Below are positions 6,977 through 8,194 of a DNA stretch of 10,331 bases, one piece after another. This DNA is from a virus. The notes beneath the pieces are model-generated. The model was given only the letters and a program-made list of their open reading frames with translations. It ran no database searches and was not told the DNA's origin. The translations under genes and the position numbers were made by a program. Position 1 is the stretch's first letter. Every line of letters begins with the position of its first letter. Where the stretch lies: UHGV virus genome UHGV-1710946, one strand, 5' to 3'.

Positions 6977-8194
6977 TTATCCTTTCCGTTTACGGGCTTC
7001 GTTAATTTGTGTCTCAAGAATGCTTCGCGCCTGCGCGGTGGCAGCGGCCTTGTCCATTCCCTGACTCATGAAAAACTTTATGAGGTTGTTCGCCTGCGTT
7101 TGCAGGGCTTTTTTGAGAGCGTCGGCTTCAGCGCGAGCCTGGGCTTCCCTCACCCGCGATGCTTTTAGTTCGGCATTCTTCCTGTTTGCCGTGGTGCGAG
7201 CTTTTTTTAACAACCGGCGAACGTTGTCCGTGGCGCTATCTTTTGCGCGTAGTTTTTTGCCTAATGCATCCTGAGATTTCAGATACAGCTCATACTCACG
7301 CGCAGCTTTAGCCTGATCCGTCGTTGTTGTCCGGTTGCGCGCGAGCGATTTAGCCAGTTCGCCTTTGAAATAGGTTGTTGTCTTCCGCTTGTCATCGCCG
7401 AAGGCTACCTGTTCAGCTGCTTTTTCCAGGGCAATAATGATGGCCTTGTGCCATGTGGGAGACTGAAAACGCGTCATAGCGTGCAAAACATGTTTGCAAG
7501 CCACACCAGTCAGATCAGGGTTGCGGATTTTGGGGAATGCATACTCTTTTGGCGGCGCGACAGCATAGTTACCAGCCGTGGCCATATAACGATACCAGTA
7601 TTGATGGCGTCCACAATCACAGTCGAAAGATACCCGGCCCTTGCAGAGATCGGCAGCGATTCGGGCTTTTTTCGCACCGTCTTCAGCAATTTCCTCAACG
7701 GCTTTATCCCATTCCTCAAATCGAATTCTGACACGGTGATGCTGGTGGACCGACTCATCCGAGGCATTAACAGATATCAATGCAAGGTTGTGTTTTAGCC
7801 CGAGGAATGTCGCGGCTTTGATCCCTGTGCCATCAGAAACCTTGTTGTTAGCGCGTTTTATATCAATGCTGGTGGACTGCGCCACCAGCTGAGCATAGGT
7901 AATGCCGGGTACCGTGCTCTTGAATTTGGTTTTATGAGACTGCCTTGAGGTGTTGAAACTGCGTATATCTTCGGGCGTAAAGTAGGTGCCATCTTTCTTT
8001 TTCCCAAGGCTGAGGAATGCCTCAAGTTCGCGGTTACGCATCCCCATAATCCTTGGGGTGAGTGTACGTCGCGCGTTTCGCCGATTCTGACGCTGCTGTT
8101 TACGGATAAGATCGAAGACCTTATTAAAGTCTTTTGCACTTAATCCATCAGTCTGATAGCGACCAAGGTTGTCGCGAGCATATTCAGTTGGCAT
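6977..8194 (-). CDS. SWIM-type zinc-finger protein with a basic coiled-coil C-terminus
   Basis: 405 aa. CxCx(n)CxH signature FDCDCGRHQYWYRYMATAGNYAVAPPKEYAFPKIRNPDLTGVACKHVLHAM. Basic N-terminal segment (RKQQRQNRRNARR). The last ~120 residues are K/R/A/E/Q-rich, predicted coiled-coil. AAGGGA SD lies 5 nt upstream of the ATG. Confidence 0.7.
   Translation of the reverse strand: MPTEYARDNLGRYQTDGLSAKDFNKVFDLIRKQQRQNRRNARRTLTPRIMGMRNRELEAFLSLGKKKDGTYFTPEDIRSFNTSRQSHKTKFKSTVPGITYAQLVAQSTSIDIKRANNKVSDGTGIKAATFLGLKHNLALISVNASDESVHQHHRVRIRFEEWDKAVEEIAEDGAKKARIAADLCKGRVSFDCDCGRHQYWYRYMATAGNYAVAPPKEYAFPKIRNPDLTGVACKHVLHAMTRFQSPTWHKAIIIALEKAAEQVAFGDDKRKTTTYFKGELAKSLARNRTTTTDQAKAAREYELYLKSQDALGKKLRAKDSATDNVRRLLKKARTTANRKNAELKASRVREAQARAEADALKKALQTQANNLIKFFMSQGMDKAAATAQARSILETQINEARKRKG

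Follow-up and report, generated by a model that had tools for sequence, protein, structure and literature searches.

Gene 25 of a P1-like phage-plasmid: a very basic tail-morphogenesis protein with a divergent, insertion-bearing SWIM-type core

Introduction

Bacteriophage P1 serves as the standard transducing phage for Escherichia coli, and structural models now cover nearly all of its virion. Although amber mutants defined gene 25 over 40 years ago, its product, gp25, is still one of the few P1 morphogenesis proteins without a fold, a location in the particle or a mechanism. The mutants were reportedly first described by Walker and Walker in 1983. In the P1 annotation, and in papers that cite Walker and Walker 1983, gene 25 is placed in a 'tail stability' class that it shares with gp7 (the stopper) and gp24 (the terminator).

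The surroundings of gp25 in the particle are well described. In the near-complete cryo-EM structure of the P1 virion, the neck contains a gp7 hexamer, the stopper, which links the adaptor PmgC to the tail terminator gp24; gp26 forms a six-fold baseplate plug, gp6 the hub and gp5 the spike (PMC12810830). Almost all of the virion proteins are identified in that study, in which gp25 is not mentioned, and a 2025 preprint on the P1 tail and baseplate does not place it. [quoted passage not shown] An HHpred search with gp25 by P1 workers in 2022 was recorded as 'None >50%'.

Two further systems are relevant for comparison. SWIM domains (PF04434; PROSITE PS50966) are found in ZSWIM8, Shu2/Sws1, MuDR transposases, MEKK1 and SNF2-associated bacterial proteins. 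They often mediate protein–protein contacts. In phage T4, gp2 is a DNA-end protector with a role in head–tail joining.

The window analysed here is a stretch of 10 331 nucleotides from the virus genome UHGV-1710946. The original prediction for this DNA described a SWIM zinc-finger protein with a long basic coiled coil, encoded together with a spike protein, and regarded the combination as an unrecognized one. The analysis supports this interpretation in part: a SWIM-type fold is upheld, the coiled coil is not, and the combination is that of P1 gene 25, the gene order of which is kept in hundreds of P1-like phages.

Identity and family of gene 25

The gene lies on the minus strand at positions 6977–8194, exactly the extent of an open reading frame of 405 residues plus stop found in a scan of the window. 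At the nucleotide level it shares 99.4–99.8% identity with the gene 25 sequences of P1 and related phages. The product is 100% identical in amino-acid sequence to P1 gp25 (YP_006549), a protein of 46 kDa with a pI of 10.1 and a net charge of +35. The match to PHROG 1722 spans residues 1–405 (E = 1.4e-227). The open reading frame is the classical gene 25 of a P1-like phage-plasmid, encoding the 'tail stability' protein, a late-expressed morphogenesis protein that has long been known and already carries a name.

An exhaustive profile search (E ≤ 1e-3) gathered a family of 602 clusters at 50% identity, nearly all of them of 330–450 residues. The named members come from phages of Enterobacterales, Vibrio and Photobacterium, with distant homologues in Acinetobacter phage ABMM1 and Xanthomonas phage Rb1. 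The original prediction had named routine prophage structural proteins as homologues among the outcomes that would speak against it; by annotation the homologues are tail proteins, the usual label being 'phage tail protein' (PHROG 1722 / 4315). The Rb1 homologue (6809–7888) is labelled differently, as 'transcriptional regulator MvaT', which is probably a mis-annotation driven by its Lys/Ala-rich tail. In the same phage, the search detected no gp26-like open reading frame in the gap upstream of this homologue, a stretch that carries no annotation.

Over its whole length the window shares 99.0% identity with the P1-like phage vB_EcoM-813R1; its identity to P1 is 98.7% from position 1038 onward. 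It contains, in this order, a small membrane ORF, an SPFH protein, a tRNA(CAT), ban (a DnaB-type helicase), dbn, the late operon, pmgL and pmgM. The gp25 protein, the operon, the late promoter and the neighbouring genes are all like those of P1; the differences lie in the left end of the window and in pmgM. At the left end (11–1019), the small membrane ORF and the SPFH/Band-7 protein (Pfam E = 1e-30) replace P1 tciA/tciB/tciC, and the same arrangement upstream of the tRNA and ban is present in the P1-like phages MH422554, RCS47 and 813R1. The tRNA at 1047–1122 has the anticodon CAT and is assigned to Met by ARAGORN, whereas the P1 record gives tRNA-Ile2 (trnI), an identity that would require lysidine modification. 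The VRR-NUC-domain gene pmgM (192 residues in P1) is split into overlapping open reading frames at 8976–9236 and 9100–9552 by a 2 bp deletion near 9232 relative to P1 (NC_005856), and is a pseudogene unless the deletion is an error of sequencing.

The late operon and its conserved 26-25-7 unit

Gene 25 belongs to a late, Lpa-dependent operon on the minus strand of the window with the order 26-25-7-24-6-5. Its upstream neighbour, gene 26 (8204–8581), encodes the T4 gp53-like baseplate plug (PHROG 1269) and is identical to Gp26 in PDB entries 9ay5 and 9vzk. Downstream, on the same strand, are gene 7 (6245–6973) for the acidic neck stopper, or head-completion protein (PDB entry 9ums, chain B, Gp7), gene 24 (5473–6258) for the tail terminator (PDB entry 8jan, Gp24; PMC10304247, PMC12810830), gene 6 (4470–5471) for the baseplate hub (PDB entry 9vzk, Gp6; PHROG 1390) and gene 5 (3845–4477) for the spike, which has an OB-fold and a β-helix (Pfam Phage_base_V, E = 1e-4; PHROG 430). 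The late promoter LP26 (8611–8629, minus strand; −10 hexamer and −22 repeat) and the C1 repressor operator O26 (8654–8670, minus strand) are taken from the P1 annotation, to which the window sequence is identical. The structural context that had been proposed for the gene is thus confirmed, with plug, stopper, terminator, hub and spike genes behind LP26.

Only nine nucleotides separate genes 26 and 25, and three separate genes 25 and 7. The same neighbours recur well beyond the close relatives of P1. Among 137 distant viral loci, 132 have a gp26-like gene directly upstream of the gp25 homologue. The open reading frame directly downstream could be taken in 114 loci, and in each of them it belongs to the gp7 family. 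One clade has the order 26-25-7-24-6-5, as in P1, while in the other the order is terminase, ..., 24, 26, 25, 7, major capsid, sheath. Because the triad is kept in two clades of otherwise different gene order, 26-25-7 constitutes a conserved unit. An association of homologues with SNF2 helicases, which had been considered as an alternative to an association with spike and hub genes, was not seen, nor was one with transposases.

A scan of the operon for promoters and terminators returned fewer promoter-like sites than were obtained from shuffled sequences. A weak sigma-70-like site, TTAACG-18-GATAAT (9/12), is present at 6976–7005 on the minus strand, at the 3′ end of gene 25 and a short distance before gene 7. 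Such a site might account for the mild effect of CRISPRi on genes 26 and 25 when genes 7, 24, 6 and 5 score as essential, or it may be a chance occurrence, given the depletion of promoter-like sites in the operon.

The gp7-like proteins are all net acidic and the gp25-like proteins are all strongly basic. In the P1 subclade gp7 carries an additional, very acidic N-terminal extension of ~80 residues with a net charge of about −26, which is absent from the homologues of 160–175 residues in the other clade.

A divergent SWIM-type core

The globular core of gp25 comprises residues 60–265 (7400–8017, minus strand) and consists of a helical subdomain, a three-stranded sheet and a SWIM-like, putative zinc knuckle. 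The CxCx(n)CxH signature on which the original prediction was built is confirmed. The motif FDCDCGRHQYW...GVACKHVLHAM corresponds to C192-x-C194-x38-C233-x-H235, contains three of the only four cysteines of gp25 and is the best conserved stretch of the protein in an 18-sequence alignment. In an alignment of 144 sequences, which reaches down to about 22% identity, the sole invariant columns are G97, C192, C194, E217, P221, N225, G230, C233, K234 and H235, and the pattern C-x-C-x(36–43)-C-x-H is present in every one of the 259 non-fragmentary family members that were fetched. The invariance of the ligands across the family indicates that the motif is real and strongly selected rather than a chance pattern. 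The putative zinc site, with both ligand pairs, occupies 7490–7621 (minus strand). It is interrupted by a family-specific, invariant insert of 38 residues (GRHQYWYRYMATAGNY..PPKEYAFPKIRNPDLTGVA) that is both aromatic and basic and includes the invariant stretch GRHQYWYRY...FPKIRNP.

The arrangement of secondary structure resembles that of solved SWIM domains, with the CxC pair on β-strands followed by a helix that starts at CxH. The family searches are less clear-cut. Native gp25 has no match in Pfam or NCBIfam, and in Pfam neither it nor the isolated core has one even at E ≤ 10. PF04434 is matched (E = 0.003, 17.5 bits against a gathering cut-off of 19.6 bits) only after the artificial removal of 27 residues, those between the first helix and G-V-A-C-K-H of the core. 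Across 50 diverse members of the family SWIM is the only Pfam family to recur, in weak matches to seven of the 50 (best E = 0.069). The spacer of 38 residues (36–43 in the family) is above the canonical SWIM range, reportedly put at about 6–25 residues by Makarova et al. in 2002. Formal membership of the SWIM family is therefore not reached, on account of both the spacer length and the HMM threshold. Of the SWIM assignment as predicted, the ligand signature and the fold stand; the spacer length does not conform, and the comparison with PF04434 gave no match for the native protein and a score below the cut-off even without the insert.

A Foldseek search of the PDB with gp25 returned nothing below an E value of 0.48, and PDB sequence searches with either the single protein or a 50-sequence profile gave no meaningful match; ZSWIM8 and Shu2 are among the matches to gp25. 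The core does resemble three small phage proteins described as 'SWIM-type domain-containing', from Achromobacter phage Motura (A0A514CSJ7), Burkholderia phage BcepSauron (A0A482MLT0) and Erwinia phage Y3 (A0A2H4IBE8), with Foldseek E values of 3e-5 to 1e-4, a probability of 1.0 and TM scores of about 0.45–0.6. These proteins differ from gp25 in their size (139–223 residues) and in the absence of the long basic tail, and share only 11–17% identity with it. Compared with known SWIM proteins, gp25 has a longer spacer that is itself conserved and a sub-threshold HMM score. Its context is not that of a helicase, transposase, kinase or ubiquitin ligase, and polycationic helical arms flank the core of 206 residues in which its domain is set.

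We conclude that the core of gp25 is a divergent, insertion-bearing SWIM-type fold with a putative zinc site. In the alternative reading the Cys/His pattern would be an unrelated motif, either another zinc knuckle or a metal-free one, within a lineage-specific tail-protein fold; this reading is unlikely. Literature searches found no SWIM domain noted in gp25 or in phage tails or virions. The gene is known, and the SWIM-like assignment of its product appears to be new, as it is absent from the databases and the P1 papers searched. What appears novel is that the gp25 family has a SWIM-type fold into which a long, conserved stretch is inserted, and that the 26-25-7 linkage is strict.

Basic N-terminal and C-terminal regions

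The core is flanked by basic regions on both sides. The basic patch predicted at the N-terminus is borne out by residues 1–59 (8018–8194, minus strand), which have a pI of 11.1 and a net charge of +7. In the AF2 model this region contains a helix at residues 20–40 (RKQQRQNRRNARR). R38 and an LTP motif are nearly invariant. On the other side of the core, residues 266–293 (7316–7399, minus strand) form a linker of low confidence, with pLDDT < 50 in the full-length model.

Residues 294–405 (6980–7315, minus strand) form a basic, Ala-rich C-terminal tail. In the AlphaFold model it consists of an 84-residue helix (294–377) followed by a second helix (382–404), which carries a G-x-S/T-x3-A-x3-F end module. 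The 112 residues include 27 K/R, 23 A and 12 D/E, giving a net charge of +15, and the LIVMF content is 19% in P1 gp25 (19–21% with the family tails included). The median tail of the family has 105 residues and a net charge of +14. The K/R/A/E-rich tail anticipated from the sequence is therefore present and is modelled as helical. The hydrophobic heptad (3.5-residue) periodicity of the P1 gp25 tail, however, is no better than that of shuffled sequences (p = 0.33), and p ≤ 0.05 is reached by only 24% of 241 family tails. As the periodicity is at the level of shuffles, the description of the tail as helical and basic holds, and its description as a coiled coil is unsupported. Structure prediction, proposed at the outset as a check, thus yields a SWIM-like core and one long and one short C-terminal helix, joined by a linker of low confidence.

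Pfam searches with the C-terminal 60 residues gave scattered HTH-type matches in single family members, individually insignificant and none of them recurrent. Because the matches do not recur, no SAP, HeH or HTH domain is claimed for gp25.

Virion association, phenotype and charge

No chain in the PDB matches gp25 at E ≤ 1, although P1 Gp7, Gp24, Gp26 and Gp6 are all represented, and gp25 is absent from the models built into the P1 virion cryo-EM maps. Published mass spectrometry of CsCl-purified virions detected two gp25 peptides (8.4% coverage), the same result as was obtained for the six-copy stopper gp7. The same data missed several true low-copy components, including the six-copy gp26 and PmgA, and their authors allow for contamination or a co-factor role as the source of the weak gp25 signal. 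In published CRISPRi experiments, plating dropped roughly tenfold when gene 25 was knocked down, and the gene was scored as non-essential. The knock-down was probably leaky, since the structural gene 26 behaved likewise.

The net charges of the gp25 homologues range from +22 to +46, and those of the adjacent gp7-like proteins from −5 to −37. The two are anticorrelated overall (rho = −0.64) and less so within the clades (−0.31 and −0.29). The co-variation is thus only suggestive, as it is mostly a between-clade effect.

[quoted passage not shown] Sit has 1140 residues; an entirely helical chain of that length would span about 171 nm, and the ~750 residues of Sit that are helical would span about 112 nm. 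In the cryo-EM papers the P1 tail measures about 210–212 nm (53 rings × 40 Å), compared with the 120 nm assumed by Gonzales et al. The claimed length match is doubtful when Sit is set against the cryo-EM tail, and another contributor to the lumen is possible.

A model for gp25 function

The explanation that we favour, with a probability of about one half, is that gp25 is a zinc-stabilized, very basic morphogenetic factor, present in low copy or transiently, that acts at tail completion or head–tail joining by binding an acidic partner, DNA or both. A few-copy or transient adaptor is the simplest model in view of the genetic class shared with gp7 and gp24, the co-inheritance with genes 26 and 7, the weak virion association, the invisibility in cryo-EM and the basicity of the protein. 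In such a model gp25 would lie outside the symmetric rings of the virion. Docking on a partner protein would fall to its putative zinc-stabilized SWIM-like core, which includes the invariant insert, and the polycationic helices would grip a polyanionic surface, which may be the acidic stopper gp7, the negative lumen of the tube or a DNA end. The protein would act when the tail is completed or the head is joined to it, and in its absence tails would not be stably capped or joined. The zinc, partner and DNA binding are proposed here from the sequence, genomic context and charge of gp25. As the gene is syntenic with baseplate and neck genes alike, its linkage does not tell at which end of the tail gp25 acts.

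Ranked nearly as likely as this model is a possible, purely non-structural function as an assembly chaperone or co-factor, of the kind proposed for T4 gp26 and gp51. Such a protein would aid the oligomerization of gp24 or gp7, or the insertion of gp26, and then depart, so that the peptides found in virions would be carry-over. The absence of gp25 from all P1 cryo-EM models and the weak mass-spectrometry signal, for which a co-factor was raised by the authors themselves, are in keeping with this, as are the tight linkage and possible translational coupling of gene 25 to genes 26 and 7 and the matches to ZSWIM8 and Shu2, SWIM domains being known in general as protein–protein modules. Known tail chaperones, however, are usually small and acidic, unlike a 46 kDa protein with a net charge of +35; gp25 was detected where the true six-copy gp26 and PmgA were missed, and the conserved polycationic tail of 100 residues would be left without an explanation. 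Two other assembly roles were considered and set aside. A scaffolding protein is disfavoured because the P1 major capsid protein has its own cleaved N-terminal domain, and a tape-measure chaperone because sit is located elsewhere, with pmgB upstream of it; for both, the genetics point to tails.

A role at the DNA end is more doubtful. The protein would reside in the neck or tail channel as an analogue of T4 gp2, serve in head–tail joining and leave with the DNA. The T4 gene 2 cluster, in the region 73.5–81.5 kb of T4, is indeed similar, with genes 3 (terminator), 2 and 4 (head closure) adjoining 53 and 5, and its counterpart in P1 is 26 (gp53-like), 25, 7 (stopper), 24 (terminator), 6 and 5. 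Both proteins are basic and are encoded beside head-closure, terminator, gp53 and gp5 genes. The high basicity of gp25, the aromatic and Arg-rich invariant residues beside its putative zinc finger and the several weak, differing HTH-type matches at its C-terminus in single members could suit a DNA-binding protein, and a protein in the channel is expected to be missed by symmetry-averaged cryo-EM. Homology of gp25 to T4 gp2 is nevertheless rejected (hhalign probability 0.13), the latter having 274 residues and no Cys; the T4 genes are divergently transcribed, which makes the analogy of position a loose one, the HTH-type matches are individually insignificant and none recurs, and DNA binding by gp25 is suggested by analogy. 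In an extended and slightly less probable form of this proposal, gp25 would be a channel-resident, DNA-end-binding pilot, a zinc-finger analogue of T4 gp2 that is injected with the DNA, and a candidate for the holder of the abortively transduced circle. Sandri and Berger are said to have described in 1980 that abortively transduced P1 DNA is in a protein-linked circle, the protein of which was reportedly never identified. Least credible is a nucleoid-associated or transcriptional regulator without a part in morphogenesis, which is highly unlikely: the 'MvaT' label of the Rb1 homologue and the basic Ala/Lys-rich tail would favour it, but gene 25 is located in the late structural operons of all relatives, the classical amber mutants show a tail phenotype according to the P1 annotation, gp25 peptides are present in virions and a Pfam search for MvaT/H-NS was negative for gp25 and the family members.

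Significance

If gp25 is only an assembly co-factor, the gain is a modest one in annotation. A DNA-end or pilot role, if true, would bear on head–tail joining and on the survival of transduced DNA in the recipient. The putative zinc site, the conserved insert and the polycationic arms of gp25 provide direct experimental handles on its function, and the SWIM-type assignment extends to about 600 clusters of homologues in the P1-like phage-plasmids of Enterobacterales, Vibrio, Acinetobacter and Xanthomonas.
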